NCBI GenBank assembly: GCA_035562735.1
Contig: DATMWB010000003.1
Coordinates: 44,232-108,231 of the forward strand
Reading direction: 5' to 3'
Source: Candidatus Methanoperedens sp.
Lineage (GTDB): Bacteria; Patescibacteriota; Microgenomatia; UBA12405
DNA: 64,000 nucleotides
Both the position numbers and the translations under genes were made by a program. Position 1 is the first letter of the stretch. Each line of letters opens with the position of its first letter. Shown here one piece after another: positions 1-20,201 of this stretch. Below the pieces are notes generated by a model, which saw nothing but the letters and a program-made list of their open reading frames with translations, was not told the DNA's origin and did not search any database.

Positions 1-95
1 TTCAGTATGGAAAAATGGGATGTTATGACGATGCTTATGGAATCCTTTCAAACGTTATGTGTACTGAGCCTGATAAATTTCAACCAAAAAAGTAA
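1..95 (+). CDS. 3' end of an unidentified upstream gene (partial, runs off window start)
   Basis: The frame is open from position 3 to TAA at 93-95 (…GCYDDAYGILSNVMCTEPDKFQPKK*). No recognisable domain. Confidence 0.2.
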   Translation, partial: QYGKMGCYDDAYGILSNVMCTEPDKFQPKK

Positions 96-109
96 TTTTG
101 TGCTATAAT
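81..109 (+). promoter_or_regulatory. Candidate promoter for rpsO with extended -10 TGcTATAAT (101-109)
   Basis: TGCTATAAT at 101-109 and a weak -35-like CAACCA at 81-86. It lies 80 nt upstream of the rpsO ATG. Confidence 0.35.
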
Positions 110-188
110 CCTTTCCTGACTATTAAATCGGTTTTTTGGGAGCCATTCCAAAATATTATAAATTACCGACAAATAGCCAAATAATTAC

Positions 189-458
189 ATGGCATTAACT
201 ACCGAAGAAAAAAGCGAGATTATCTCAAAATACGCCCAAGCTAAGGGTGATACAGGTTCTCCAGAAATCCAAGTTGCGATTCTTTCAAAAGAAATTGAAA
301 AACTCCAAGGTCATCTAGGTGAAAACAAGCACGATTCCCCCGCCAAAAGAGGTTTATTAAGTAAACTCGCCAAACGTCGACGTTTGCTTCGATATCTCTC
401 TATTCACAATGAAGAGCGATATAGCAAGATTGTTAAGGGCCTAAACCTTAAGAAATAA
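189..458 (+). CDS. rpsO: 30S ribosomal protein S15
   Basis: 89 aa with S15-typical conserved motifs (…GDTGSPEVQVA…LxxHL…KHDxxSRRGLL…). It sits in the canonical position upstream of pnp. Confidence 0.9.
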   Translation: MALTTEEKSEIISKYAQAKGDTGSPEIQVAILSKEIEKLQGHLGENKHDSPAKRGLLSKLAKRRRLLRYLSIHNEERYSKIVKGLNLKK

Positions 459-504
459 GTGTCTCGTATTACTCTATAATCAATTTATATTTATTTAATT
501 CATC

Positions 505-2730
505 ATGGCAAAAAATTCTGTCGATATCGTTATTGGTAACAAAAAAATTACACTTACAACTGGTCAATTGGCCCCTCAGGCCAACGCAGCTGTTACGGCC
601 CAAATGGGTAAGACAGTTGTTTTAGCCACTGTTGTCTTAGGAAAAGTTGATAAAACCAAGGATTATTTTCCCCTTTCTGTTGAATTTGCCGACAAACTTT
701 ATGCTGGTGGTTTAATCAAAGGTGGTAAATGGATAAAGCGTGAAGGCGGCCCTTCCGATACTGCCATTCTTTTTGGTCGAATCATTGACCGCTCAATTCG
801 TCCTTTATTTTCCTCTGATTTTAAATATGAAGTTCAAGTTATTGCCACAGTTTTAAGTAATGACAAAGAAAACGATGTCGTTATTCCCGCATTTACTGCT
901 GTTTCTGCTGCCTTGATGCTCTCAGATATTCCTTTTAATGGTCCAGTTTCTATTGTTCGTGTTGGTACAAATGAAGGTGAGTTAACCGTCTTCCCCACGA
1001 TTTCAGAGCTTCAAAAATCCACCTTAGATCTTCTTGTCTGTAAAGACTCTGAAGGTATCAATATGATTGAGGCTGATGCCAATATTGTCGACAACGACAC
1101 TGTTTTAAAAGCCATGCAGCTTGGTTTTGATACTGGTACTGAAATTAATGCTCAATTATCTGATTTTGCTAAAAAGTACGGCAAAAAGAAAGTTGATTAT
1201 CAACCACTATCTCCCTCAAAGGAATTAATTGCTGAAGTTGAAACTTTGGTAAAAAAAGAGCTAACCCAATTCATGATGGATGGTGTTGACGGGGCTCACA
1301 TAGCTGCCGAAGATAAAATAAAAGAAAAAGTTAAAGAGGCTTTTGAAGCCAAAATTAAAGCTGAAGAAGTTGAGGAAAATCAAGTCATTGAATCTGTTGA
1401 TCTACTCGTGCGTCAATATTTGCGAGAAGCTACTCTAAAAGGTACCCGTTATGACAAAAGAACTTTTGATGAAATTCGACCTTTAGAAATCGAGACGGGA
1501 GTTCTTCCTGTCACCCATGGTTCCGCCCTTTTTCAACGTGGTTTAACTCAAGCCTTGACAATTACTACTCTCGGTTCTCTAGCCGAACAGCAATATCTTC
1601 AAGATTCAAACGGAGAAATCACCAAAAGATATCTTCACTATTATTCTGCCGCTCCTTTTTCCACAGGTCAAACTGGTCGCTTTGGTCGTCCTGGAAGACG
1701 CGAAGTTGGACACGGTGCTCTTGCTGAAAAGGCCTTAGTTCCGGTCATTCCATCAATTGAAGAATTTCCTTATACCATTACTTTAACCTCTGAAGTTATG
1801 TCACAAAATGGTTCTTCATCCATGGCTTCTACCTGCGGTTCCACTCTTTCTCTTATGGACGCTGGTGTTCCCATAAAGGACAAAGTCGCTGGCATTTCTA
1901 TTGGTATGGTTTCCGATGATAATGGTAAATATGTTTTATTAACTGATATAGCTGGTATCGAAGACCACTGTGGTGATATGGATTTCAAAATTACTGGTAC
2001 TCGTAGTGGTATTACTGCAATTCAACTCGATATCAAAAGAATGGGTCTTTCCATGCAAATGATAAACGACACCTTTGTCGCTTCGACCAAGGCTCGTCTC
2101 CAAATTTTGGACAAAATTGATTCTGTTATGCCCGCTCCACGAGCCCAATTATCCGAATACGCTCCAAAAATAAAAATGGTTACTCTTCCAGAAGATAAAA
2201 TCGGAGAGGTTATTGGCTCTGGTGGAAAAACTATCAAAGCCTTAATGGAAAAATTTGCTGTTCAAATTGATATTGACGACGATGGACGTGCTTCAATTTG
2301 CGCCATAGATCAAGCTAAAATTGATGCTTGTGCCTACGAAATTGAATGTATGATTAAAGATGTTCAAATTGGTGAAGATTACGAAGGCATTGTCACTCGT
2401 GTTGAAAATTATGGCGCCTTTGTTGAATTCCTCCCCGGTCGTGAAGCTTTACTTCACGTTTCTGAAATGAGTGGGGGATTCCTAAGTGACCCTTCTTCCA
2501 TTATCAAAGTCGGTGACAAATTAAATGTCAAAATCTCCGGATTTAACGATAATCATCAAATAAAATTAAGCTCACCAGAATTTAAAGCAGCACACCCCGG
2601 AGTTCCTCGAGATCCTTCTGAAGCTCCTCGTGCTCCCATGGGTTCACGTCCTCCATTCAGAAATTTTGGTAGCCCAAGCGGTGGTCAAAATCGCTCTTCC
2701 TTTGGAGATCGAAATCGCCGAGGAAGATAA
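505..2730 (+). CDS. pnp: Polyribonucleotide nucleotidyltransferase (PNPase)
   Basis: 741 aa with two RNase PH-like domains plus KH and S1 domains (…KIGEVIGSGGKTIKAL…, …GIVTRVENYGAFVEF…). It ends in an RG-rich C-terminal tail. Confidence 0.92.
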   Translation: MAKNSVDIVIGNKKITLTTGQLAPQANAAVTAQMGKTVVLATVVLGKVDKTKDYFPLSVEFADKLYAGGLIKGGKWIKREGGPSDTAILFGRIIDRSIRPLFSSDFKYEVQVIATVLSNDKENDVVIPAFTAVSAALMLSDIPFNGPVSIVRVGTNEGELTVFPTISELQKSTLDLLVCKDSEGINMIEADANIVDNDTVLKAMQLGFDTGTEINAQLSDFAKKYGKKKVDYQPLSPSKELIAEVETLVKKELTQFMMDGVDGAHIAAEDKIKEKVKEAFEAKIKAEEVEENQVIESVDLLVRQYLREATLKGTRYDKRTFDEIRPLEIETGVLPVTHGSALFQRGLTQALTITTLGSLAEQQYLQDSNGEITKRYLHYYSAAPFSTGQTGRFGRPGRREVGHGALAEKALVPVIPSIEEFPYTITLTSEVMSQNGSSSMASTCGSTLSLMDAGVPIKDKVAGISIGMVSDDNGKYVLLTDIAGIEDHCGDMDFKITGTRSGITAIQLDIKRMGLSMQMINDTFVASTKARLQILDKIDSVMPAPRAQLSEYAPKIKMVTLPEDKIGEVIGSGGKTIKALMEKFAVQIDIDDDGRASICAIDQAKIDACAYEIECMIKDVQIGEDYEGIVTRVENYGAFVEFLPGREALLHVSEMSGGFLSDPSSIIKVGDKLNVKISGFNDNHQIKLSSPEFKAAHPGVPRDPSEAPRAPMGSRPPFRNFGSPSGGQNRSSFGDRNRRGR

Positions 2731-2750
2731 AATTCCTGTATACTTTTCTT

Positions 2751-3806
2751 GTGGATTCGACACTAACTATTTCTGATGCCATTGCCAAATTAAAAGCCAA
2801 AAGTGGAGGTGTCAATTTACCTGATGGCTTGGAAGCCAAGCTTGAGGAAATGTTTGCCCAACTTGAGGTAAATTCTCACTCTGAAACTACCTTCTGGACT
2901 TATTACCAAACAGCCTCAAAATACATTGATTGGATAATTTCTCTTCCTTGGAACAATCGATCCCAAGATATTTTAGATCTTCGTTTTGCCAGCGAGAAAC
3001 TCAACGAAAATCATTTTGGTCTTGATGATGTCAAAGAAAGAATTTTAGAATACATTTCTGTTTTGGCTCTCCAAAAAAATCGTAATCCTGATGTCAGTTT
3101 TCGTGCTCCTATTTTGCTTTTTACTGGTCTAGTCGGTACTGGAAAAACCACCATGGCCAAATCAATTGCTGATGTCATGGGGAGAAAACTTATCCGTATT
3201 CCCTTTGGTGGTTTAGGTGATCCCTTGTATTTACGTGGCCAAAGTCGTCTTCACCCAGAAGCAGAACCGGGTGCTATTATTAGAGCTTTATCTCAGTGTC
3301 AAACAAGAAACCCAGTTATTTTACTAGATGAAATAGATCGTGTCGCTGACGATGCTCTAAATACAATTATGGGTGTTCTAGTTGAATTACTTGATCCAGA
3401 GCAAAATGCCCACTTTACTGATCATTATATTGATTATCCCTTCGATTTATCCGAAGCATTTTTCGTTGCTACATGTAACAATACAACCCGTATAGCTACG
3501 GCAGTTATGGATCGTCTTGAAGTCATTCAGATGCCATCATATACCGATGAAGAAAAAATCGCTATTGGACAAGACTATATTTTCCCAAAAGCCTTAAAAG
3601 ATTCTGGATTAACCCCCGACGAATTAATAATCAAGGAAAATGTTTGGCTTGGAGTTGTGAGACCATTGGGTTTTGACGCTGGTGTAAGAACTTTAAAAAG
3701 AAATATTGAAGGACTCTGTCGAAAAGCTGCTGCCATGGTTCTTGCTGGTACAAAGCAGGTTGTAATCGATGAAACTAACATTAAAAAATTTATACCCCAG
3801 TGGTAA
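2751..3806 (+). CDS. Lon-type AAA+ ATPase module without a protease domain (GTG start)
   Basis: It aligns along its length to the central region of Lon (HFGLDDVKERILEYISV…ILLFTGLVGTGKTTMAKSIA…VILLDEIDRV…LDPEQNAHFTDHY…ATCN…MDRLEVIQMPSYTDEEK…AGVRTL). The ORF stops before any S16 peptidase Ser-Lys region and has no LON N-terminal domain. Confidence 0.7.
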   Translation: MDSTLTISDAIAKLKAKSGGVNLPDGLEAKLEEMFAQLEVNSHSETTFWTYYQTASKYIDWIISLPWNNRSQDILDLRFASEKLNENHFGLDDVKERILEYISVLALQKNRNPDVSFRAPILLFTGLVGTGKTTMAKSIADVMGRKLIRIPFGGLGDPLYLRGQSRLHPEAEPGAIIRALSQCQTRNPVILLDEIDRVADDALNTIMGVLVELLDPEQNAHFTDHYIDYPFDLSEAFFVATCNNTTRIATAVMDRLEVIQMPSYTDEEKIAIGQDYIFPKALKDSGLTPDELIIKENVWLGVVRPLGFDAGVRTLKRNIEGLCRKAAAMVLAGTKQVVIDETNIKKFIPQW

Positions 3807-3810
3807 AAAT

Positions 3811-4248
3811 ATGAAAAATACAATCATTGGTCTTATTTTAGGTTTAATTATCGCCATGTGGGCATTTTATTTGTATACCCAAAAACCAAAAATAACCACA
3901 TCATTACCTCCGGCTACACCCACAACTGCAGAAATTTCGGAGATCCCGGAAAATGTAATATCTGATGACGATTTAATTAGACAAGCCCTTGCGGACAAAT
4001 ATAACAAGGACCTTTCTGACGTCACTTATACATCTTCACAAAATGATGGTACTCACGCCTCAGGCGGTGTCAAGTTTTCTGGAGACATTGCTGGTGCTTG
4101 GGTGTTAGCCGCTAAAGATGATGGAGTCTGGAAAATTGTCCAAGATGGCAACGGTGTAATAATGTGCGAAATTGTTGCCCCATATGACTTTCCTGTTTCA
4201 ATGGTTGCCGAGTGTGTTGATAAAAACGGTAAACTCATAAAATATTAA
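3811..4248 (+). CDS. Hypothetical membrane-anchored protein
   Basis: There is an ATG at 3811 just after the Lon-like stop. It has an N-terminal TM helix (IIGLILGLIIAMWAFYLY) and an extracytoplasmic domain with no recognised family. The track ORF begins at 3769 and overlaps the upstream gene. Confidence 0.45.
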   Translation: MKNTIIGLILGLIIAMWAFYLYTQKPKITTSLPPATPTTAEISEIPENVISDDDLIRQALADKYNKDLSDVTYTSSQNDGTHASGGVKFSGDIAGAWVLAAKDDGVWKIVQDGNGVIMCEIVAPYDFPVSMVAECVDKNGKLIKY

Positions 4249-4250
4249 TT

Positions 4251-5165
4251 ATGAACAAAAAGGAAATTTATCTTTCACTTACACTGTTGGCCTTGGCTTT
4301 TGTCATCCTACTAACTACCCTTCTACCTTATCATCGGGAAAACCCAACCCCCAGTCCGAGTATTATTTCCCAACCGAGTGCTATACCCACCCCTTCCTTT
4401 TCTCCCATTATTATCTTATCCCCAAATATTTCAAAGCCATTAACCTCACCCCTCAAATTAATTGGTCTGATTGACAAAAGTTGGGTTTTTGAGGGATCTT
4501 TTCCCATAGAGCTTCTTGATAATCAAAATAAAAGCTTATTCAAAAGTACTGCTTCGGCTCCAAACTGGTTAGAGGAAGAATCAAAATACACCAGCTTTAT
4601 GGCTGTATTTAATTTTGTCACTTATAGTCCAAGTGGATTTGTCCAAGTGAAAAATTCTAATCCCAGTGGCCTTCCAGAAAACGACAAAAGAGTCACTATT
4701 CCGGTGACTTTCGATTCTACTTCAGTTACAAAAACAGGTTTAAAAACTTATAAAAACAATCAATATGGTTTTGAATTTGAAATACCAATAGACTGGGAAG
4801 CAAAAGAGAAACCACCATATCATACTTATTTTGGAAAAATAGGGGAAAGTTATTATAATGAGGGTTCAGTTTCAGATGGTGAAATTGTTATTTCAGTTGA
4901 GAAAAAAAATCCAAACGAAAATCTAGAAACAATTTTTAAGTCATACTACGATGGATTTTTAAAAAATTCAGATACAACTATTCAGAAAATTAAATTAGGA
5001 GGAATCGATGCTGGCTATTTTGATTATTTTGACGAGACTGCTTTTACCATCAAAGATAATTATAGAATTACAATCCAAGTCACTGCATATCCCCAAATAG
5101 ATCCCAGTGTTTATTCAAAAGATATTTTTCAACAAATTCTTTCAACTTTTAAATTTACAAAATAA
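4251..5165 (+). CDS. Hypothetical N-terminally anchored secreted protein (FKFT-motif paralog family)
   Basis: It has an N-terminal TM/signal anchor, a Pro/Ser-rich linker, an internal NxYGFEFEIPIDWE motif and a C-terminal …FQQILSTFKFTK. It resembles ORFs 24570-25220 and 25224-25988. Confidence 0.5.
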   Translation: MNKKEIYLSLTLLALAFVILLTTLLPYHRENPTPSPSIISQPSAIPTPSFSPIIILSPNISKPLTSPLKLIGLIDKSWVFEGSFPIELLDNQNKSLFKSTASAPNWLEEESKYTSFMAVFNFVTYSPSGFVQVKNSNPSGLPENDKRVTIPVTFDSTSVTKTGLKTYKNNQYGFEFEIPIDWEAKEKPPYHTYFGKIGESYYNEGSVSDGEIVISVEKKNPNENLETIFKSYYDGFLKNSDTTIQKIKLGGIDAGYFDYFDETAFTIKDNYRITIQVTAYPQIDPSVYSKDIFQQILSTFKFTK

Positions 5166-5740
5166 TGCCCTTAACAAAAGTTCAACAATTAGAATATATC
5201 GCCCATTTGGTGGGAAAATGTAAGAAGTGCGATTTATATAAAACTGCTACCAATCCGGTTCCCGGTTTTGGTAATCCCAATGCCGATATCGTCTTTATCG
5301 GTGAAGCCCCTGGAGCCCAAGAAGATAAGGAGGGTTTGCCTTTTGTGGGGAATTCAGGTAAACTATTAGACAAGCTTCTGAATACGATAAGTGTGCCTCG
5401 AAAAGACGTTTTTATCTGTAATATATTAAAACATCGCCCTCCAGAGAATCGAGATCCACTTCCACACGAAATGAAAGTCTGTGTTCCTTATTTAAAGGCT
5501 CAATTAAAAATTATAAAACCGAAAATTATCATTACTTTAGGGCGATTTGCAATGAGTTATTTTTTTCCATCTGAATCTATCAGTCGAGTTCATGGTCAAG
5601 TCAGAAAAATAATCTGGCAGGAACTACCGTTAACAATTGTTCCTGTATACCATCCTTCAGCTGGACTCAGAAATGGTGCCATGCTTAAATCATTACAAGA
5701 AGATTTTCTTAGTATAAGCAAATTATTAAAAGACAATTAG
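5165..5740 (+). CDS. Family 4 uracil-DNA glycosylase
   Basis: It carries the GEAPGxxEDxxGxPFVGxSGxLL motif, conserved cysteines (CKKCDL) and the HPSA motif. Confidence 0.8.
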   Translation: MPLTKVQQLEYIAHLVGKCKKCDLYKTATNPVPGFGNPNADIVFIGEAPGAQEDKEGLPFVGNSGKLLDKLLNTISVPRKDVFICNILKHRPPENRDPLPHEMKVCVPYLKAQLKIIKPKIIITLGRFAMSYFFPSESISRVHGQVRKIIWQELPLTIVPVYHPSAGLRNGAMLKSLQEDFLSISKLLKDN

Positions 5741-5758
5741 CCAGTTTAACTATTTATC

Positions 5759-5779
5759 TTTTTTACTATTTATCTATTA
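5759..5779 (+). promoter_or_regulatory. 21-bp motif TTTTTTACTATTTATCTATTA upstream of rnj (identical copy upstream of fusA)
   Basis: It is an exact 21-mer match to 42296-42316. Both copies end about 20-25 nt before an ATG. Confidence 0.35.
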
Positions 5780-5798
5780 AACTATTTATCAAAAAAAT

Positions 5799-7571
5799 AT
5801 GATTAATCAAAAAACATATCAAAAACCAGCTTTAAATCCAGCTCTTCAAAAGGATTTCACGAGGACACCTCATATACAAAATTTATCTAATGGTCAAGAT
5901 GCTGTCCGCATTTCTTCACTAGGCGCTTTTGGAGATGTAACTCAAAACATGTTCGTTTACGAGTTTGCCCCACGAGGGGACTTCTCAAAATCTCAAATCA
6001 TTATCGTCGATTGTGGTGTTGGTTTTCCTGAAGAAGACGCCTTTGGTGTTGATCTTCAAATTCCTGATACAACTTATTTGCTAGACAAAAAAGAACGGAT
6101 ATTGGGAATTTTTATTACCCATGGTCATGAAGACCATATTGGGGCTATTCGTTACGTATTACCAATATTAGGCAACAATATCCCCATCTTTGCTCCAAAA
6201 TTAGCAGCTGCCTTTATTGAATCGCGACTAGCAGAAAACCAAATTCGAGCCTCGGTTTCTGTCTATCAATCTGGAGATATTTTCAACAAAGGTCCTTTTA
6301 CTATCGAACCCATTAGAGTGACCCATTCAATTCCAGACACTCATCATTTTGCAATCACCACTCCAATTGGCGTTTTTTACCACGGATCTGATTTTAAGTT
6401 TGACGTCTTTCCGATTGACAACAAACCTGCAGAACTGAAAAAAATTGCCAATGCCGGTAACAAAAAAGTTATCGCTTTAATGTCTGATTCGCTAGGTGCC
6501 GACCACGAAGGTTATTCTCCGTCTGAACGAGATATTGCTGAAAACTTTAAGCATCAAATAGTCAACGCCAAGGGGCGAGTCTTTGTTACTTCTATTAGTA
6601 GTAATATTGTCCGTTGGGGTCAGGCTATCGAGTATGGAAAATCAACAGGTAGAAAAATTTGTGTTGTTGGTTATTCTGTCGATAAAGCTATCAATATTGC
6701 CAAAGAATTAGGTTATATTAAATTGGCTGATACCGATATGATTGCCCCAGAACGAGCCAAAAATTTCCCCGACAACAAGCTTTTATTTTTAGTTGCCGGT
6801 TTTGCCGGTCAACCCGATTCGGCATTGAGCAAAATGGTTATGGGTAAGCATCGTGTCAAAATAAAATCAGGTGACAAAGTAATCTTTTCCTCTCCAGACT
6901 ATATTCCTGGAACTACCAGTAATATCTACGAAATGATCGATATTCTTTCCAAAATGGGTGCTGATGTTGCCTATGGAGAAAAAGAAGAACTTCATGTCTC
7001 CGGTCATGGTTACCAAAAAGAACACGCCCTTCTGATGACCCTAACTAACCCTCGATATCTATTACCAATTGGTGGTAATTTCCGACATGTAAAAAGCTAT
7101 TTTTCAATGGCCAAAATAATGGGATTTACTGACGACCAATTTATTACCCCAGATTTCGATTCTGCAGTTACCTTTTATGCTAATGGTAAAGTTGATACCA
7201 ATTTTCATATTCCCATGCATAAGGTTCTAATTGATGGTCTTGGAATAGGTGATGTCGGTGCCACAGTTCTTCGCGATAGGAAAACTTTAGCTGAAGATGG
7301 AATGTTTAGTGTAGTTCTAATGGTCAATAAAGAAGATGGCACAATGTTTAAGGAACCAGTAATTCTCTCTCGGGGTTTTGTGTTTATGAAAGAAAACACC
7401 GATCTTATTGATTATCTAAAAGAAGAGGTTAAAAGACGCTTCGGAGAAGTTACTAGCAAGCCTGCCAACTTTGATTATATTAGAACTGAACTTCAGGCCT
7501 ATCTCGAAAACATTATCAAGGAAAAAACTGGTCGCGAACCCATGGTTCTACCACTGGTTATTGAGGTCTAA
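5799..7571 (+). CDS. rnj: Ribonuclease J (metallo-beta-lactamase/beta-CASP RNase)
   Basis: 590 aa with the HGHEDHIGA motif, beta-CASP region and RNase J C-terminal domain. Confidence 0.85.
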   Translation: MINQKTYQKPALNPALQKDFTRTPHIQNLSNGQDAVRISSLGAFGDVTQNMFVYEFAPRGDFSKSQIIIVDCGVGFPEEDAFGVDLQIPDTTYLLDKKERILGIFITHGHEDHIGAIRYVLPILGNNIPIFAPKLAAAFIESRLAENQIRASVSVYQSGDIFNKGPFTIEPIRVTHSIPDTHHFAITTPIGVFYHGSDFKFDVFPIDNKPAELKKIANAGNKKVIALMSDSLGADHEGYSPSERDIAENFKHQIVNAKGRVFVTSISSNIVRWGQAIEYGKSTGRKICVVGYSVDKAINIAKELGYIKLADTDMIAPERAKNFPDNKLLFLVAGFAGQPDSALSKMVMGKHRVKIKSGDKVIFSSPDYIPGTTSNIYEMIDILSKMGADVAYGEKEELHVSGHGYQKEHALLMTLTNPRYLLPIGGNFRHVKSYFSMAKIMGFTDDQFITPDFDSAVTFYANGKVDTNFHIPMHKVLIDGLGIGDVGATVLRDRKTLAEDGMFSVVLMVNKEDGTMFKEPVILSRGFVFMKENTDLIDYLKEEVKRRFGEVTSKPANFDYIRTELQAYLENIIKEKTGREPMVLPLVIEV

Positions 7572-7594
7572 GTTTTTTTTAGATAAACTTATTT

Positions 7595-7648
7595 TGCCCG
7601 CCTTTGTTTGCGATTTTTTCCCAGACAGGACGGGCATCCTTGTTTTTT
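7595..7648 (+). terminator. Weak hairpin plus T-run after rnj
   Basis: TGCCCGCC …loop… GGACGGGCA followed by TCCTTGTTTTTT. The loop is long, so this is a weak call. Confidence 0.3.
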
Positions 7649-7692
7649 AGGTTTAAATTTGGAGTTTGCAACAAATTTATCCTAAAAACACA

Positions 7693-7722
7693 ATCCCGAT
7701 GAGACTTTAGTCGACATCGGGA
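7693..7722 (+). promoter_or_regulatory. 9-bp inverted repeat (ATCCCGATG / CATCGGGAT) just upstream of a leaderless-type promoter
   Basis: A perfect 9-bp stem with a 12-nt loop, 15 nt upstream of the TGgTAAAAT box. Confidence 0.35.
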
Positions 7723-7736
7723 TATCTCCTAAATTT

Positions 7737-7745
7737 TGGTAAAAT
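7737..7745 (+). promoter_or_regulatory. Extended -10 (TGgTAAAAT) 5 nt upstream of ATG 7751, with no SD
   Basis: TG at 7737-38 and TAAAAT at 7740-45. The ATG at 7751 has no purine-rich SD between them. Confidence 0.35.
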
Positions 7746-7750
7746 ATCTC

Positions 7751-8320
7751 ATGAAAATACTTTCAATTTGCGGTTCCCCCCGAAAAGGCAATTCTGAAAC
7801 CATTCTTTTAGAACTCCAAAAACTTTTTAAAGAAAAAGGCGTTGAAAATGAAATAATTTTACTTCGTCAAAAAAATATCAACCGCTGTCATGGTTGTGTT
7901 GAATTTTGCAACCCTGCTGGGCTTTGTTGTCAAAAAGATGATGTAAGTTCTATTATCGATAAAATGGTGGAATCAGACGCCCTAATTATCATCTCCCCAA
8001 ACTATTTTCAAATGCCACCCGGATTGTTAAAAGACTTAATGGACAGGACCTGCGTAATTTTTGCCAGTGCCAAGGACGAGTTATTAAAAAATAAAAAAAT
8101 CGCTGTTATTGCTCTTGGTGCTGAGGAGGCAAAAGAAAGTCAAGTCTGCGCTGAAAATATTGCCAAGTTATATTGTCGCTATATTGGAAAAGTGGTTATA
8201 ACCAAAAGCTTTCAATCCAACAGTGAGCTAAAAGGAAATTTTAACGATATTCTAGAAAATTCTTATAATCCCGACATTAAAGCATCTCTCAATTCCATTG
8301 TAAAAGCTCTGTTAAAATAA
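7751..8320 (+). CDS. Flavodoxin-like NADPH-dependent FMN reductase / iron-sulfur flavoprotein
   Basis: It has the MKILSICGSPRKGNSE flavodoxin-like N-terminus typical of NADPH-dependent FMN reductases and a Cys cluster (CHGCVEFCNPAGLCCQ). The track start at 7736 is a TTG, and 7751 is the first ATG. Confidence 0.6.
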   Translation: MKILSICGSPRKGNSETILLELQKLFKEKGVENEIILLRQKNINRCHGCVEFCNPAGLCCQKDDVSSIIDKMVESDALIIISPNYFQMPPGLLKDLMDRTCVIFASAKDELLKNKKIAVIALGAEEAKESQVCAENIAKLYCRYIGKVVITKSFQSNSELKGNFNDILENSYNPDIKASLNSIVKALLK

Positions 8321-8323
8321 GCC

Positions 8324-10030
8324 ATGAAGTACTCACAACTTTTTGGTAAAACAAGCAAGACAGTTTCCAAGGATGCTACCGTCGCCAGTCATCGTCTTCT
8401 TCTTCAGGCTGGTTTCATTCGCCAACTTGCCGCAGGACGATACACCCTCCTTCCTCTCGGTCTAAAAGTATGTAAAAAAATTGAAAATATTATTAGAGAA
8501 GAGGTGGAAAAAACTGGAGCCCAAGAGTTAATTGTCCCTACTCTCCATCCAATTGAATTATGGCAACAAGCTAATCGAGATAAAAAATTTGGTGCTGCCA
8601 TGATGATGGTTAATGACCGTAATCAAGCCCAATTTACTTTAGGTGCTACTGCAGAAGTAATAATGTTGGACTTAGTCAAACAATTTGCCCCAAGCTACAA
8701 GGATTTACCTATAAATATCTACCAATTTTCCCAGAAATTTCGCGACGAAGCTCGTCCTTCTGGAGGTCTTTTACGAACCCGTGAATTTGTCATGAAAGAT
8801 GGTTATTCTTTTCATACAAACGAAGCCGACTTAAAAGAAACTTATCAAAAATATTGGGACGCTTATTTGAATATTGCCCAAAAATTAGATTTAAAAATTA
8901 TTGTTGTTGAATCAGACAATGGTGCTATTGGTGGGGCTGTTTCCCATGAATTTATGGTTGAATCTGAGGTGGGGGAGGACACTATTGCTACTTGTACCTG
9001 TGGATATGCTGCTAATTTGGAAAAAGCCTCCTTTGTCAAAAATTCTATTAATCTTGATGAAGCTGAAAAAGAACTAAGTGAAGTTGAAGCAGTCAGAGGT
9101 ACGACCATGGAAGATGGAGTCAAGTTACACAATTTACCTCTTAACTTACAAATCAAAGATGTGGTCTACGTTGACGAAAAAGGTCGCTTTATTTTGGCCA
9201 TTATCCGAGGTGATTTTATGGTTAATGAAACTAAATTAAAAAATTTAGTTCTTTCAAATGAATTACGCCATGCCACCGAAGAGGAAATCATCAACATTCT
9301 TCATTCTGTCCCTGGCTTTATTTCTCCGGTTGGAATAAGACAAAATATTGACCCCAAATCTGAGTTTATAATTGTTGCCGACGACTCTTTGCGCACTGTA
9401 AAAAACTGTTATGGTGGTTCCAACAAGAAAAATATTGACCTTCTCAATGTAAATATTGACCGTGACTATAAGGCCGATCTAGAAGGTGACATCGCCGCTG
9501 CCTGTGAGGGAGATATCTGTCCCCAGTGTAAATCTCAAAAACTACATTTAATAAAAGCCGTAGAGTTTGGCAATATTTTTAATATCGGCTATGCCTATTC
9601 TGATCCCATGAATGGAAACTACACTGACAAAGATGGTTCCCTAAAAAAGCTTTACATGGGTTCTTACGGAATTGGTATAGGAAGAGCAATGGCAATTGAT
9701 GTGGAAGTGCATCATGATGACACTGGGATAGTATGGCCAAAAAGTTTAGCCCCATATCAAGTTCACTTAATTGGTCTTGATGGTATGGGTGAAGATTTTT
9801 ATCAAGAATTACTTTTAAAGAATATTGATGTCCTTTTTGACGATCGCGATAGTGTTTCCGCTGGCGCAAAATTTGCTGACGCTGATTTAATAGGAATTCC
9901 TATTAGATTGGTTATCAGCAAGAGAAGTCAGGAAAAAGGTGGAATCGAATATAAATTAAGATCCCAAAAAGAGTCAGAAATTATAGACAAAAAAAATCTT
10001 ATCTCAAAAATTACTAATTACTTTAACTAA
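8324..10030 (+). CDS. proS: Prolyl-tRNA synthetase
   Basis: 568 aa with a class II aaRS core and ProRS-specific motifs (…HRLLLQAGFIRQ…, anticodon-binding C-terminus). Confidence 0.9.
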   Translation: MKYSQLFGKTSKTVSKDATVASHRLLLQAGFIRQLAAGRYTLLPLGLKVCKKIENIIREEVEKTGAQELIVPTLHPIELWQQANRDKKFGAAMMMVNDRNQAQFTLGATAEVIMLDLVKQFAPSYKDLPINIYQFSQKFRDEARPSGGLLRTREFVMKDGYSFHTNEADLKETYQKYWDAYLNIAQKLDLKIIVVESDNGAIGGAVSHEFMVESEVGEDTIATCTCGYAANLEKASFVKNSINLDEAEKELSEVEAVRGTTMEDGVKLHNLPLNLQIKDVVYVDEKGRFILAIIRGDFMVNETKLKNLVLSNELRHATEEEIINILHSVPGFISPVGIRQNIDPKSEFIIVADDSLRTVKNCYGGSNKKNIDLLNVNIDRDYKADLEGDIAAACEGDICPQCKSQKLHLIKAVEFGNIFNIGYAYSDPMNGNYTDKDGSLKKLYMGSYGIGIGRAMAIDVEVHHDDTGIVWPKSLAPYQVHLIGLDGMGEDFYQELLLKNIDVLFDDRDSVSAGAKFADADLIGIPIRLVISKRSQEKGGIEYKLRSQKESEIIDKKNLISKITNYFN

Positions 10031-15403: not shown

Positions 15404-17278
15404 ATGAACGCACGGGATTTGAAAAACAAATTTGTTGATTTTTTCAAAAACTATCAACATGCCGAAATTCCCAGTGCTTCAATTGTTCCCGAAAACGATC
15501 CCACCACTCTTTTCATTTCTGCTGGCATGCACCCCCTCGTTCCTTATCTCTTAGGTCAACCCCATCCTCTAGGCAAAAGGTTAGTTGATGTTCAAAAATG
15601 TATTCGTACTGGCGATATCGATGAAGTCGGTGATACCTATCATCACACTTTTTTTGAAATGCTTGGCAACTGGTCTCTTGGTGACTATTTCAAAAAAGAG
15701 ATGATTGCTTTTTCCTATGAGTTTTTAACCAACAAAAAATATCTAGGTCTTGATGTATCAAAATTAGCTTTCAGCTGTTTTGCTGGTGATCAAGACGCTC
15801 CTCGTGACGAAGAAAGTTTCAATTTTTGGCGTGAACAGGGAGTTAGTCCCAGCAGAATTGCCTATTTACCTAAAAAAAATAATTGGTGGGGTCCCGCTGG
15901 AGCTACTGGCCCCTGTGGTCCAGATACCGAAATGTTTTATTGGACAGGGGAGAGTGAAGCACCCGAAAAATTTGATGCCAATGATAGTCGTTGGTTGGAA
16001 ATTTGGAATGACGTTTTTATGCAGTACAACAAAAAAGCCAATGGTACCTTTGAAGCACTAAAAGCTCCAAACGTTGATACAGGTATGGGGGTTGAGCGAA
16101 CTACTGCAGTTTTATCGGGCTTATCGGATAATTATCAAACCTACATTTGGCAACCAATAATTCAAAAAATAGAGGAAATCTCTGGGAAAAAATATGTCGC
16201 TGCAATGAATAATCCCGTCATTGCGAGTAGCACATCCGTCATTGCGAGCGAAGCGAAGCAATCTTCTAAAAAAATCGCCACCTTATCTTCTACTTCTAAC
16301 GATGACGCCCGAAGTTTTCGCATTATCGCTGACCATATAAAGGCTGCAGTTTTTATGATTGCCGACAGTGTTGAACCCTCAAACAAAGAGCGTGGTTATG
16401 TTCTCCGTCGTCTTATTAGACGTAGTATCCGTCAAGGTAAAATTTTGGGAATAGAGCAAAATTTTTGCTCTATTATTGCCACTACTGTTTTAGACAATCA
16501 AAACAATTATGCTGGTACCTATTCCGAACTAGATTCAAACAAAAATAAAATTTTAGAGACTTTAGAGGCTGAAGAAACCAAATTTCGTCGCACTCTCAAC
16601 AAGGGTCTTAGTGAAATTACAAAATTAATTATCCGTCAAAAAAGTGTCTCCGGAAAAGAAGCTTTTGACTTATACCAATCCTTTGGTTTCCCCGTCGAAA
16701 TGATAGAGGAAGAATTAAGAAGAAACAATTTATCTTTAGATATTGCCGAGTTTAACCGTCTAAAAGAGGAACATCAAAAACTATCTCAAACTCTTTCTGC
16801 CGGAAAATTCAAGTCAGGTTTAGCTGATAATTCCGAAATTATCACCAAATATCACACTACTACCCATCTAATGCACGCCGCTCTTAGAAAAGTTTTGGGT
16901 GAGCATGTTGAACAAAGTGGTTCCAATATTACCTCAGAAAGACTTCGTTTTGATTTTTCCCATCCGCAAAAAGTTGCCGAAGATCAGCTAAAAGAAGTCG
17001 AAAAAATAGTCAATGAACAAATTAATGCCTCACTTTCCGTCACTGTGGAATCTATGAAATTTACTGATGCCCAAAAATCTGGTGCCTTAGCCTTTTTTGG
17101 CGCTAAATACCCAGAAATTGTTACTGTCTATACAGTCGGTGACCCAAAAAGTTTTTTTTCAAAGGAAGTCTGTACCGGCCCCCATGTCGATAATGTTGGG
17201 AAATTAGGTCATTTTGAAATTCAAAAAGAAGAATCCGCAGGCAGTGGCAAGCGTCGGATTTATGCTATTCTTAAGTAA
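15404..17278 (+). CDS. alaS: Alanyl-tRNA synthetase, short form lacking the C-Ala domain
   Basis: Met at 15404 aligns to the AlaRS N-terminus (…FVDFFKNYQHAEIPSASIVPENDPTTLF…). The catalytic and editing domains are present (HxxxH …CTGPHV). The ORF ends right after the editing domain. Confidence 0.88.
   Translation: MNARDLKNKFVDFFKNYQHAEIPSASIVPENDPTTLFISAGMHPLVPYLLGQPHPLGKRLVDVQKCIRTGDIDEVGDTYHHTFFEMLGNWSLGDYFKKEMIAFSYEFLTNKKYLGLDVSKLAFSCFAGDQDAPRDEESFNFWREQGVSPSRIAYLPKKNNWWGPAGATGPCGPDTEMFYWTGESEAPEKFDANDSRWLEIWNDVFMQYNKKANGTFEALKAPNVDTGMGVERTTAVLSGLSDNYQTYIWQPIIQKIEEISGKKYVAAMNNPVIASSTSVIASEAKQSSKKIATLSSTSNDDARSFRIIADHIKAAVFMIADSVEPSNKERGYVLRRLIRRSIRQGKILGIEQNFCSIIATTVLDNQNNYAGTYSELDSNKNKILETLEAEETKFRRTLNKGLSEITKLIIRQKSVSGKEAFDLYQSFGFPVEMIEEELRRNNLSLDIAEFNRLKEEHQKLSQTLSAGKFKSGLADNSEIITKYHTTTHLMHAALRKVLGEHVEQSGSNITSERLRFDFSHPQKVAEDQLKEVEKIVNEQINASLSVTVESMKFTDAQKSGALAFFGAKYPEIVTVYTVGDPKSFFSKEVCTGPHVDNVGKLGHFEIQKEESAGSGKRRIYAILK
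16216..16264 (+). repeat. Interspersed repeat copy A (partial unit plus full unit) inside the alaS coding sequence, in frame
   Basis: CGTCATTGCGAGtagcacatc + CGTCATTGCGAGCGAAGCGAAGCAATCT. It translates as VIASSTSVIASEAKQS within a loop insertion relative to canonical AlaRS. Confidence 0.7.
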
Positions 17279-19467
17279 TGGAGCTGTCCTATTATTGGCT
17301 TATTTCAATCACTACCGAAGTTGTTTCAGTGGGTCTGATAAAACGAGGTAATCCAAATACTTTGGCTGCGCTTGGTCCAGAAACCGAATGGCTTCCCGAC
17401 AATCCTGATTCATTTTTACACTCTGTTGATATTTCTTTATCAGAGGCGGCGCAAAAAGCTTCACTTGAGCCCGAACAAGAACCAGAAACAAGTGCTTTTA
17501 TCCTTCCACCAAAGTGGATCGGCAATGACGGTAAAATTTTTCCAGAATATTTAAAATTACTCGAAAACCTTTGTCGTTCTCTAAAATTAAAACCCCTTGG
17601 TTTTATCAGTAACGATGAAGCCTTCATCGAATCTCTTGGAAAAGAGGATTCATTCCCCCCAAGTTTTATTTTGGTATACCTTGGTATAAAAGAATTCTCC
17701 TTGTCCTTGGTATATCTTGGAGAAGTAAAAAAACGTTTTCATCAAGCCTTAAGTAATGATTTTACCCCTCAAGATTTAGAAAATGCTCTAGTTACTGTTC
17801 GTTTGGATTCAGCCTTACCCCCGAGAATTTTAGTCTTTGGTCATTTGGGATTAAGCATTATTGATGATTTAAAAAATTATTCTTGGATAGGTAAAAAAAA
17901 TGTTGAAACCTTTTTACATTTACCTGATGTTGAAGCCTATCAACCAGAGGAACTTTTTTCTTTGTATTGTAAAACCGTCTCCTCTCAAATTGAAAATAAA
18001 GCTCAAAATGCGTCACCCCCCCCAGTAGAAAAAGTTGATATCTCCGATAATAATCTCGAAGAGATAGCCGAGGAACCCATAGAAGAAATTGAAGAAACAG
18101 AAGAAGCTCCTAAAGACGAAAAAATATTTATCGAGGAAGATATAGAAAATTCCATAGATGAAGTTCCTGCGATGGATTTGGGTTTTTCCCAAATTACTGA
18201 CTCTGACTCTATTGTTTTGACTCCACCAACTTCTATTGATACAGACTCTTTTGCCAAGGAAAATATCGAGACTCAGTTACCCCCCTCAAAGTCCAACATA
18301 AATCTCCCTAAATTTTCCTTTCCCAAGATTTCTTTGCCAAGTTTAAAATTCAATCCTTGGTTCCTCTTTCCCTTGGCTCTTTCACCCCTACTTCTGCTCA
18401 TTCCCTACTATCTAATGAAAGCGGAAATTACGATAAATTTTACTCCAGTTGAGATAAACAAAGACTTCAATGTCACTCTTGATTCAACGGCTACTGATGT
18501 TACGACAAGTACCATTCCTGTTCTTAAAAAAACTCTTGATTTAAAGTTTTCAGAGTCTATTGCTACGACTGGTCAAAAAGAGACTGGTGACAAATCAAAA
18601 GGGGAAATTACCCTTTTTAACAAGGCTGACAAAATTCAAAATGCTCCCAAAGGCACAATACTATCTGACAACTCTGGTAAAAAATACGAACTACTCACTT
18701 CCATTCAAGTGCCCGCAAGTACCTTTGACCTCGCTGTTGGTAGTATTGCCATGGGAAAAATCAATGCCACCATAATTGCTAGTGATATTGGACCTGAGTT
18801 TGATTTAAATAAAGACACTCTTTTGTCCTTCAAAGATAACGCCAACTTACTGGCTAAAGTCAATGAAACAATTACCGGTGGAAGTCGACGTCAAATTAGA
18901 GTCGTCTCTTCCGAAGATAAAAGCAAATTAAATAAGGTCGTTACCGATTCTTTACCTACCCGCATTTCAGAAAAGGTTGACGCAGAATCTTCACTTGCTG
19001 GTCTTATGACTGGCACTCTCTTTGTCGACAAAAAACAACTCGATTTTAATCGTGAGATAGGTGAAGAGGCAGATACTCTTCAAGTAAATGCCAACTTGGT
19101 TCTTTCTTTGCTTCAAGTTGACCCCCAACAAAAAGAAAATATCCTAAAAACATTACTAGTAAATAATCAAGATGTTTTAAAATCTATTTCCTCACCCGCT
19201 GATTTTTCTTTTACTTTTAACGCCACCCAAAACACCTCATTAAAATCAACCGGAAAGTTGACCATAACAGGTAAGACACTTCCCAAAATTGATACTGAAA
19301 GCCTCCGTTCACGCTTAGTTGGGAAAAGTATCACTGACGCCTTGAGCATTGTAGATTCACAGTCCCGAGTTTATGATAGGGACATAAAGATAATTCCTTC
19401 CCCTTTCAAATTTCTCAAGCGTTTACCCCCATCTCGAGATAAAATTACCATTATCCAAAAATTTTAA
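17278..19467 (+). CDS. Membrane protein with a PilM/FtsA-like (actin-fold) cytoplasmic N-domain, an acidic linker, one TM helix and a beta-rich extracytoplasmic domain
   Basis: The N-terminal ~160 aa resemble the PilM/FtsA SHS2 region. An E/D-rich linker, a TM helix (WFLFPLALSPLLLLIPYYLM) and a ~350-aa C-terminal domain follow. The fold assignment is by eye only. Confidence 0.5.
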   Translation: MELSYYWLISITTEVVSVGLIKRGNPNTLAALGPETEWLPDNPDSFLHSVDISLSEAAQKASLEPEQEPETSAFILPPKWIGNDGKIFPEYLKLLENLCRSLKLKPLGFISNDEAFIESLGKEDSFPPSFILVYLGIKEFSLSLVYLGEVKKRFHQALSNDFTPQDLENALVTVRLDSALPPRILVFGHLGLSIIDDLKNYSWIGKKNVETFLHLPDVEAYQPEELFSLYCKTVSSQIENKAQNASPPPVEKVDISDNNLEEIAEEPIEEIEETEEAPKDEKIFIEEDIENSIDEVPAMDLGFSQITDSDSIVLTPPTSIDTDSFAKENIETQLPPSKSNINLPKFSFPKISLPSLKFNPWFLFPLALSPLLLLIPYYLMKAEITINFTPVEINKDFNVTLDSTATDVTTSTIPVLKKTLDLKFSESIATTGQKETGDKSKGEITLFNKADKIQNAPKGTILSDNSGKKYELLTSIQVPASTFDLAVGSIAMGKINATIIASDIGPEFDLNKDTLLSFKDNANLLAKVNETITGGSRRQIRVVSSEDKSKLNKVVTDSLPTRISEKVDAESSLAGLMTGTLFVDKKQLDFNREIGEEADTLQVNANLVLSLLQVDPQQKENILKTLLVNNQDVLKSISSPADFSFTFNATQNTSLKSTGKLTITGKTLPKIDTESLRSRLVGKSITDALSIVDSQSRVYDRDIKIIPSPFKFLKRLPPSRDKITIIQKF

Positions 19468-19469
19468 TC

Positions 19470-20201
19470 ATGAGTTATCTCTATGTTAAATCACCACCCA
19501 AGATTACTGCGCCCAAAAAAGTCATGTCGCCGCTGCGTCGAAAGATATTGGCCTCATTTTTTCTTGTTTCCGGCCTTTTGTTGTTTTTTTCAGTGGTCTT
19601 TCCCATAGTCCAATTTCAGCTTGAATATTCCACAAAGTTTAATCAAATTCTCAATCCACTTTCAAACCAATTCTACAACCAAAATGGTTCAGTTTTAGGT
19701 GATTTGAATACTGATTACACCGAATTATCGAATTGGTTTGTTAATGATTCAGAGGTGGTCTCATCTTCTTCACCAAGCTCCCTTATTACTACTTATTATG
19801 TATCCATTCCCAAATTGAAAATTGAGCAAGCGGCAGTCATTTTTGGTAGTACCGATTTGAAAAAATCACTTATCCAATATCCGAGAACCGCGCTTCCAGG
19901 TCAATTTGGATCTCCCGTTATCTTTGGCCATTCTGTGCTCCCTCAATTTTTCAACCCTAAGTCCTATATCACCATTTTTTCAACCTTACACAAATTGAAT
20001 CAAGGAGACGAAATATTTATTGATTATGATCATATCCGTTATAAATACGTCGTTGAAGAAATGTATGAAGTTCAACCTACCGACTTGTCGGTCTTAGAAC
20101 AGCGTTTTGATGGTCGATATCTAACCTTAGTTACCTGTTCTCCTCCTGGTACATATTTGCGCCGCTTAGTAATTAAAGCCCAAATTACCGACAATACATG
20201 A
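19470..20201 (+). CDS. Sortase family transpeptidase
   Basis: It has an N-terminal TM anchor, a catalytic His region (GHSVLP) and the TLVTC active-site motif. Confidence 0.7.
   Translation: MSYLYVKSPPKITAPKKVMSPLRRKILASFFLVSGLLLFFSVVFPIVQFQLEYSTKFNQILNPLSNQFYNQNGSVLGDLNTDYTELSNWFVNDSEVVSSSSPSSLITTYYVSIPKLKIEQAAVIFGSTDLKKSLIQYPRTALPGQFGSPVIFGHSVLPQFFNPKSYITIFSTLHKLNQGDEIFIDYDHIRYKYVVEEMYEVQPTDLSVLEQRFDGRYLTLVTCSPPGTYLRRLVIKAQITDNT

Follow-up and report, generated by a model that had tools for sequence, protein, structure and literature searches.

A protease-less Lon-like AAA+ ATPase with rebuilt pore loops in Patescibacteria

The gene considered here lies at positions 2751..3806 of a 64,000-nucleotide stretch of contig DATMWB010000003.1 (assembly GCA_035562735.1; this whole stretch is referred to as the window) and encodes a protein of 351 residues (+ strand, GTG start, TAA stop) that corresponds solely to the ATPase module of the protease LonA, i.e. 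the three-helix bundle (3H), the AAA+ α/β domain and the lid. The gene is intact, functional and under strong purifying selection, and its product belongs to a real, widespread and well-defined offshoot of LonA, a natural lineage in which the Lon motor is kept under strong selection, the protease is dropped and both pore loops are rewritten. With a probability of roughly 0.6, we read the protein as a remodelling AAA+ ATPase of Lon descent that stands alone and has an acidic, non-aromatic pore, the role of which would be that of an ATP-dependent chaperone or remodeller and not that of a protease.

The Lon ATPase module and its missing flanks

The Lon-like protein matches the Pfam families AAA at residues 122-260 (E 2.3e-16) and Lon_lid at residues 283-335 (E 1.8e-9) and nothing else, with no match to Lon_C or LON_substr_bdg in Pfam even at E ≤ 1. 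The NCBIfam model TIGR00763 (endopeptidase La) is matched over profile positions 253-570 of 795 at 308.9 bits, about half of the curated equivalog cut-off of 608.05 bits, and thus the whole-protein threshold for membership in LonA is not reached. All of the closest solved structures are LonA, with B. subtilis 3m6a at E 3e-74 and residues 249-564 of the LonA chains of 7fd4 and 4ypl (M. taiwanensis LonA) at E 1e-69. The AlphaFold2 model, for which a 20-sequence family alignment served as input, has a mean predicted local distance difference test score of 90.4 and superposes in Foldseek on the 3H bundle and AAA+ module of human LONP1 and bacterial LonA with template modelling (TM) scores of 0.82-0.88. 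The presence of a Lon-type AAA+ module with a Lon lid is supported by Pfam, the PDB matches and Foldseek alike, and together with TIGR00763 these bear out a preliminary description of this DNA, made from the letters alone, in which the open reading frame (ORF) was aligned with the Lon ATPase core. The N-terminal ∼110 residues are not foreign to Lon. This helical region (residues 1-111, 2751..3083, + strand as are all features of the gene and its neighbours given below) has its LonA counterpart in the terminal part of the long helix together with the three-helix bundle (NTD-3H), i.e. the last helix and the bundle that sit atop the ATPase ring, and Y58, W61, P66 and W67 within it are conserved as in LonA. 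At the opposite end, the protein terminates in FIPQW, two residues beyond the [YF]-L-G linker motif of LonA.

The preliminary description also held that both the LON N-terminal domain and the S16 peptidase domain are absent and that no neighbouring ORF supplies the latter. Hidden Markov models (HMMs) of the C-terminal (S16) and N-terminal regions of LonA, built from 53 and 56 full-length Lon representatives, respectively, were searched against all stop-to-stop frames of the window in six frames, and the best E values of 0.59 for S16 and 2.5 for the N-domain correspond to no domain in either case. This negative result is meaningful, as the same HMMs find their domains in the Lon ORF of 36 of 36 LonA loci from reference genomes. 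Neither domain is detected with these HMMs within ±10 kb in ∼55 family loci, and no orthologue has a protease domain fused to it. A query for a CPR LonA or an orphan S16 domain, made with the S16 domain of the nearest LonA representative, returned fragments of other phyla only and carries no weight either way. The rest of the window (ProRS, FtsK, AlaRS, rpoB/C, fusA, tuf, ribosomal protein operons, secY and rpoA) offers no peptidase candidate, and no peptidase gene recurs in the neighbourhoods of family members. Both statements thus stand for the window and the related loci, and the Pfam search returns AAA and Lon_lid only.

A further suggestion of the preliminary description, that of a decaying Lon gene, does not survive a codon-level comparison with four orthologous loci in which the adjacent pnp served as the control. 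The ratio of nonsynonymous to synonymous substitution rates (dN/dS) of the Lon-like gene is 0.019 against the closest orthologue (dS 0.90, the least saturated pair) and 0.04-0.10 against the remaining ones, as low as or lower than that of pnp (0.03-0.13). The best 120 homologue clusters (348-374 aa, 72-97% identical, named members Candidatus Shapirobacteria or Woesebacteria) all consist of AAA and Lon_lid only, with 146 of 351 alignment columns invariant among them. The stop position is the same in more than 100 orthologue clusters of 348-374 aa, the GTG start is kept in three orthologues and replaced by ATG in a fourth, and ∼70 sequences, some as distant as 37% identity, share these domain boundaries. 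The reduced genome and a domain content like that of a truncated Lon would be in keeping with a pseudogene remnant, or with an assembly or frameshift artefact of a full-length lon, yet dN/dS values of 0.02-0.10 and start and stop positions shared by more than 100 independent assemblies speak strongly against such an origin. With pnp ending at 2730, 20 nt upstream, and a small membrane-protein gene beginning 4 nt past the ORF, there is moreover no room for lost domains. No frame-corrected reading restores either terminal domain and no frameshifted remnants are seen; the negative six-frame search and the low dN/dS lead us to reject this origin, the probability of which we place near zero. The GTG start and its 20-nt distance from pnp are confirmed from the ORF coordinates. 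The absence of a Shine-Dalgarno sequence, also reported previously, is likewise correct for this gene but is the norm here and no defect, since only 2 of 39 window genes have such a motif upstream; the upstream regions are A/T-rich, and the source organism does not seem to rely on Shine-Dalgarno-led initiation.

In a wider search of 1.8 billion representative proteins, protease-less relatives are found at 37-57% identity with lengths of 351-669 aa, and typical LonA proteins (770-830 aa) appear from about 42% identity downward. Ten of these protease-less relatives were checked and contain AAA and Lon_lid only. The possibility of hidden folded domains in the N- and C-terminal extensions of the longer ones was rejected, the extra length being made up of low-complexity tails rich in Q, P and S. 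Scanning of one genome per GTDB species returns 44 family loci followed by LonA loci from other phyla. The titles of the 44 loci are Shapiro-, Ames-, Levy-, Roizman-, Davies- and Pacebacteria and 'Patescibacteria group', as well as one Nomurabacteria and two metagenome-assembled genomes (MAGs) labelled Saccharibacteria; a second subgroup is typical of Dojkabacteria/WS6. In a neighbour-joining tree over 288 shared columns, 69 family sequences split from 36 LonA sequences of reference genomes, with LonA of the candidate phyla radiation (CPR) not among them, in 100 of 100 bootstraps. Such a grouping indicates that the protease-less Lon-like proteins are a monophyletic clade of Patescibacteria/CPR (Microgenomates and Dojkabacteria). 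Because of this complete split, and because 53 of the 69 members end at a single alignment column, the position of the linker between the ATPase and protease domains (A-P linker), the comparison points to an old, clean domain loss as opposed to scattered independent truncations. The window protein has the A-P linker end and the [SN][RK]xxP[DE]AEPG pore loop of the clade and groups apart from LonA. The last residue is W, Y or F in 38 of the 69 members. The C-terminal 'PQW' was considered as a universal docking motif and rejected; it is invariant only in the close clade and aligns with the LonA linker, for which reason it is not taken as evidence of a partner. No family-specific model exists in NCBIfam or Pfam, and databases label the members 'AAA family ATPase' or 'Lon protease'. 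The latter label is misleading, and metabolic reconstructions that count the family as a protease would err.

Retained motor and rebuilt pore loops

The catalytic set of the HCLR clade of AAA+ proteins is complete in the Lon-like protein. Walker A (GLVGTGKTT, G126 to T134, 3126..3152) contains K132, Walker B (VILLDEID, 3315..3338, with LLDEID at 191-196) contains D193 and E194, sensor 1 is N243 (3477..3479), the trans-acting arginine finger is R255 within DRLEV at 254-258 (3513..3515), and sensor 2 is R313 (codon 3687-3689) in the Lon-type lid, or small α, domain (3534..3803). In the family alignment all of these residues are invariant at 37-80% identity. Further Lon motifs are YTDEEK and AGVR at 310-313; the motif previously given as 'AGVR..ER' reads AGVRTLKR in this sequence. 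The pre-sensor-1 β-hairpin region, LDPEQNAHFTDHYIDYPFDLS (3390..3452), has E217, Y226 and D228 conserved as in LonA, as is the segment LDPEQN...DHY.D.P.DLS, and short strands modelled by AlphaFold2 at residues 216-236 fit a pre-sensor-1 hairpin insertion. The 3H aromatics Y58 and W61 are likewise retained. N243, R255 and R313 correspond to N473, R484 (trans-acting and critical for ATP hydrolysis) and R542 of Y. pestis Lon, and in Lon the pre-sensor-1 hairpin together with the 3H aromatics links pore loop 1 to the nucleotide state (PMC7239648). Since an arginine finger matters only in an oligomer and is invariant here, we infer assembly into a ring or spiral with active ATP hydrolysis.

The two loops that line the Lon pore do not follow this pattern of conservation. 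Comparison of the 69 family sequences with the 36 LonA sequences shows that pore loop 1 is H-R-R-T-Y-[VI]-G-A-[ML]-P-G nearly without exception in LonA, whereas the family consensus is Q-S-[RK]-x-x-P-[DE]-A-E-P-G (QSRLHPEAEPG in the window protein, 3240..3272). The Tyr398 position, Y in 36 of 36 LonA, is occupied by F (16), H (13), S (10), Y (6) and other residues in the family; the Ile/Val position is Pro in 44 of 69, the Gly position is Asp or Glu in 59 of 69 (D in 30, E in 29), and the Met/Leu position is Glu in 61 of 69. The window protein carries all four changes, i.e. Tyr to His, Ile/Val to Pro, Gly to Glu and Met/Leu to Glu, and accordingly shows His-Pro where LonA has its aromatic-hydrophobic pair. 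Pore loop 2 is altered as well (ADDALNTIMG in the window protein, 3345..3374; xxDFRGDPxx in LonA), with D-F-R-G-D-P of LonA becoming [ED]-A-[RL]-x-[DT]-I in the family and the aromatic residue, F, Y or W in 31 of 36 LonA, being replaced by A (37), S (9) and other small residues. The new loops are themselves strongly conserved (E172 in 61 of 69, P173 in 66 of 69, and a nearly invariant IMG motif), and the charge of pore loop 1 shifts from basic/aromatic to acidic. The substrate is gripped and translocated in Lon by a pincer made up of Tyr398 and Ile399, with R395 and R396 as its buttress (PMC7239648). Judged from these alignments, the engine and its coupling are retained, whereas a loop rich in Pro and acidic residues, with no conserved aromatic, has taken the place of the gripping surface.

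Two divergent types of protease-less Lon-like protein appear to exist in Dojkabacteria, one with the pore loop SKAFLDAEPG and the other with TTSTDANGFPG or SSATSLDGHPG and a long Ser/Asn-rich C-terminal tail. A gene for a Big_5 plus Peptidase_C39_2 protein lies near the second type in both of its loci.

Because both substrate-gripping loops are rebuilt family-wide, the generic label 'unfoldase' is doubtful. The preliminary description had proposed a stand-alone Lon-like unfoldase or chaperone; the stand-alone ATPase is upheld, but the unfoldase part is weakened by replacement of the Tyr398/Ile399 pair and of the pore-loop-2 aromatic. Without the aromatic paddles, threading that is blind to sequence is unlikely, and strong conservation of the new acidic loop suggests that the channel is still in use, probably by a narrower and plausibly basic client. 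In the scheme that we favour, a LonA ancestor would have cleanly lost its N-terminal substrate-binding domain and its C-terminal S16 peptidase domain. The remaining protein would form a Lon-like ring or spiral and hydrolyse ATP, and would by itself degrade nothing. Unlike Lon, it would not thread arbitrary unfolded polypeptide by aromatic paddles; the retained motor would instead act within a negatively charged channel on a narrower client, which it would remodel, hold or release and which is most plausibly a protein segment that is positively charged or disordered.

The termination of the protein exactly at the LonA A-P linker raises the question of a split Lon, in which the ATPase would feed a peptidase encoded elsewhere, be it an orphan S16 domain or another self-compartmentalized peptidase. 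Two-component AAA+ proteases such as ClpXP and HslUV are common, the W, Y or F at the end of 38 of 69 members could be a docking residue, and the peptidase searches cover the window and ±10 kb around the related genes only. Opposed to this are the lack of S16 within ±10 kb in ∼55 loci and in the 64-kb window, the lack of a recurrent neighbouring peptidase gene, a C-terminal aromatic that is not universal and the absence of any match to Lon-like partners of defence systems. Loss of the translocating pore-loop residues is furthermore at odds with the feeding of a degradation chamber, and we consider a split Lon distinctly unlikely. An equally different use of the module would be that of a switch or scaffold controlled by nucleotide and independent of the central pore, e.g. 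a DNA- or nucleoid-associated regulator acting via the Lon lid domain, in which the ATP state would govern assembly and not mechanical work. Pore loops that are no longer Lon-like are in line with such a role, as are the many AAA+ proteins that serve as switches and the crystallization of the LonA lid (α) domain as a DNA-binding module, 4git/1x37-type fragments of which match residues 261-349. The conservation of E172, P173 and IMG in the new loops nevertheless points to selection on the channel, and the 3H bundle and pre-sensor-1 hairpin that couple it to the motor are kept, making a pore-independent switch improbable.

Gene neighbourhood and possible roles

In the window the gene order is rpsO (189-458), pnp (505-2730, encoding a 741-aa PNPase), the Lon-like gene, a small membrane-anchored protein gene of no family (3811-4248), a Gmad2-like protein gene (4251-5165), a UDG-family glycosylase gene (5165-5740), the RNase J gene (5799..7571), FMN reductase, ProRS and FtsK, all on one strand and with gaps of 0-60 nt from pnp to RNase J. 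PNPase and RNase J are the conserved upstream and downstream neighbours, and the genes between the Lon-like gene and RNase J (3811..5740) vary between lineages. The small membrane protein was rejected as a conserved partner, since a counterpart is detected in the closest relative and in no other. The gene order of the window is also found in close relatives, where hrcA-grpE-dnaK-dnaJ-nusA-infB come before it. Two contexts recur across the family, namely rpsO-pnp-X-(0-3 genes)-RNase J-ftsK, where X is the Lon-like gene, and a divergent arrangement with groES-groEL. Among the 44 species-level loci, 38 have sufficient upstream and 36 sufficient downstream flank. Of the 38, 18 have the end of pnp within 200 nt before the Lon-like gene and 24 have pnp at some upstream position. 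Of the 36, 12 have an RNase J start within 200 nt past the Lon-like gene and 26 have one within 3.5 kb, and members at 51-57% identity show pnp, the Lon-like gene and the RNase J gene in direct succession. Seven loci, one of them from a Roizmanbacteria genome, have the head-to-head arrangement with groES-groEL and form a subclade of their own. Scanning of positions 1-8400 gives promoter-like sites at background and 14 terminator-like sites as compared with a shuffle mean of 7.8 ± 2.8, none of them in the 20-nt gap between pnp and the Lon-like gene.

Such positions would fit a role in maintaining proteins and ribonucleoproteins, be it as housekeeping or under stress. A contribution to proteostasis is suggested by the Lon ancestry, the groESL linkage and the dnaK operon a few kb upstream, and one to RNA or ribonucleoprotein turnover by the linkage to pnp and RNase J and the Arg/Gly-rich tails of PNPase. 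The tail of the window PNPase (2590-2727), a 40-60-residue, apparently disordered, Arg/Gly-rich segment after the last folded domain that reads ...SRPPFRNFGSPSGGQNRSSFGDRNRRGR, has counterparts of varying sequence in most of ∼34 related PNPase genes, loci L018 and L047 being exceptions.

Taken further, the turnover role would make the Lon-like protein an accessory ATPase of the RNA-decay machinery, working with PNPase and RNase J in a manner that may parallel the helicase ATPases of degradosomes. The acidic pore could, for example, engage the Arg/Gly tail of PNPase or basic RNA-binding and ribosomal proteins, and assemble, release or clear ribonucleoprotein substrates. The rpsO-pnp-X-rnj arrangement is kept to about 46-57% identity with very short gaps, and pnp and RNase J lie within 200 nt in the fractions given above; the linkage to RNase J outlasts that to pnp in several loci, no terminator-like signal separates pnp from X, and the RG-rich tail and the acidic turn of the pore loop are both consistent with the proposal. 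The order nusA-infB-rpsO-pnp is, however, anciently conserved and that of ftsK is kept too, so that the synteny may be phylogenetic inertia. One subclade adjoins groESL, Dojkabacteria members are placed elsewhere, the protein has no RNA-binding domain and the link to PNPase and RNase J is known from the genes alone. On balance we regard an RNA-decay ATPase as unlikely. Still more specific is the idea that the Lon pore, once an aromatic gripper blind to sequence, has become an acidic channel that selects by charge for basic disordered segments in a CPR-specific PNPase-RNase J machine, with the Arg/Gly-rich PNPase tail and free ribosomal or RNA-binding proteins as its would-be targets. Were this speculative and rather improbable proposal true, the protein would be the ATPase of an RNA-decay or ribonucleoprotein-recycling machine, a role held by DEAD-box helicases in other bacteria.

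Several points also weigh against our preferred reading of a stand-alone remodelling ATPase. Oligomerization, ATPase activity and the client are all deduced from sequence. The protease domain provides much of the hexamer interface in LonA, and a ring is thus not guaranteed in its absence. At the Tyr398 position F, Y or H is still present in about half of the family, and some ability to thread may persist. The gene contexts vary and are different in Dojkabacteria, and they may represent inherited gene order and not functional linkage. Finally, the searches for S16, LON-N and other peptidases cover the window and the loci given above, and the same genomes may carry a LonA or another peptidase partner beyond these.

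Other features of these neighbourhoods were observed alongside. Between groES and the Lon-like gene, a promoter-like motif, TTGTCAAG-N12-14-(C/G)TGCTAA(T), is conserved (L011, L027, L041, L042 and L046) and ends 3-6 nt before the Lon-like ATG in most of these loci, which suggests a leaderless or near-leaderless transcript in groES-linked loci; this motif aside, no convincing match to the consensus of the CIRCE heat-shock operator is present in the groES/Lon-like intergenic regions. Shapirobacteria GW2011_GWE1_38_10 and relatives (L002, L003 and L004) carry, between pnp and the Lon-like gene, a 597-aa Peptidase_S26 plus CAP-domain gene (8171-9964 in L002) that is absent from the window. The pnp of GCA_003508875.1 (L001, 6088-8179) is called as two overlapping pieces of 428 and 328 aa, probably owing to an assembly frameshift, as pnp is intact in the identical-protein loci L002 and L003. 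ProRS architecture varies among close relatives, with 568 aa and an inserted editing domain in the window (8324-10030), 409 aa without the editing domain in relatives at 86% identity (L002, 15651-16880) and 472 aa with a ProRS-C_1 domain in L010 (17266-18684). A 729-aa ORF without a Pfam family (17278-19467) is directly followed by a sortase gene (19470-20201) in the window, and its product may be a sortase substrate or surface protein. The CPR-type rpsO-pnp-Lon-like-rnj-ftsK string, with family members that are 50-75% identical, is also present in many MAGs under the title 'uncultured Gammaproteobacteria/Pseudomonadales bacterium', a taxonomy from the submitters that is probably wrong or no more than a placeholder.

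Comparison with known systems

Literature searches returned nothing relevant on natural protease-less Lon or on Lon in CPR bacteria, and no described example of a stand-alone Lon-derived remodeller was found in them. The family separates the ATP-dependent remodelling of Lon from proteolysis, for which engineered mutants are otherwise required, and offers a test of the part that pore-loop chemistry plays in substrate choice. It also bears on the proteostasis or RNA-turnover toolkit of the ultra-small CPR bacteria, the minimal gene sets of which are poorly understood. Kinship to anti-phage Lon-like proteins (e.g. BrxL) or defence ATPases was considered and rejected: PADLOC gives only weak, generic P-loop matches, the best being a partial match to DolB at E 2.4e-9, and the neighbours are housekeeping genes with no defence-island context.

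With LonA (S16 family; 3m6a, 7fd4, Y. pestis 6on2 and human LONP1) the family shares the 3H bundle, AAA+ domain and lid at 33-42% identity and TM scores of 0.8-0.88, as well as Walker A and B, sensor 1, the arginine finger, sensor 2 and the pre-sensor-1 hairpin. It differs in having neither the N-terminal LON domain nor the S16 Ser-Lys peptidase domain, in an x-P-[DE]-A-E loop where LonA has Tyr-Ile/Val and tandem Arg in pore loop 1, and in loss of the pore-loop-2 aromatic. LonC is a Lon-like protease with a degenerate, non-hydrolysing AAA-like module, and resembles the present family as a Lon derivative that gave up one of two catalytic activities. The outcome is the reverse, in that LonC keeps the protease and loses the ATPase, whereas the Lon-like family keeps an apparently intact ATPase without the protease. 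ClpB/Hsp104, and ClpX without ClpP (yeast Mcx1), are AAA+ unfoldases that work without a peptidase, and by analogy only they may illustrate how a protease-associated AAA+ motor can act as a stand-alone remodeller; these are members of other families that still have aromatic pore loops and thread polypeptide. Lon is described as a single chain in which ATPase and protease are always fused, and according to PMC9569914, in which the Lon subfamilies are summarized, both domains are present in all Lons. The nearest counterpart in extent is the E. coli Lon AAA+ module 6n2i (344 aa), with near-identical boundaries (residues 14-344 align with 14-335, E 4.5e-67, TMt 0.87). This construct is, however, a laboratory truncation with native Lon pore loops, whereas the Lon-like gene is natural and selected, and its loops are rebuilt.

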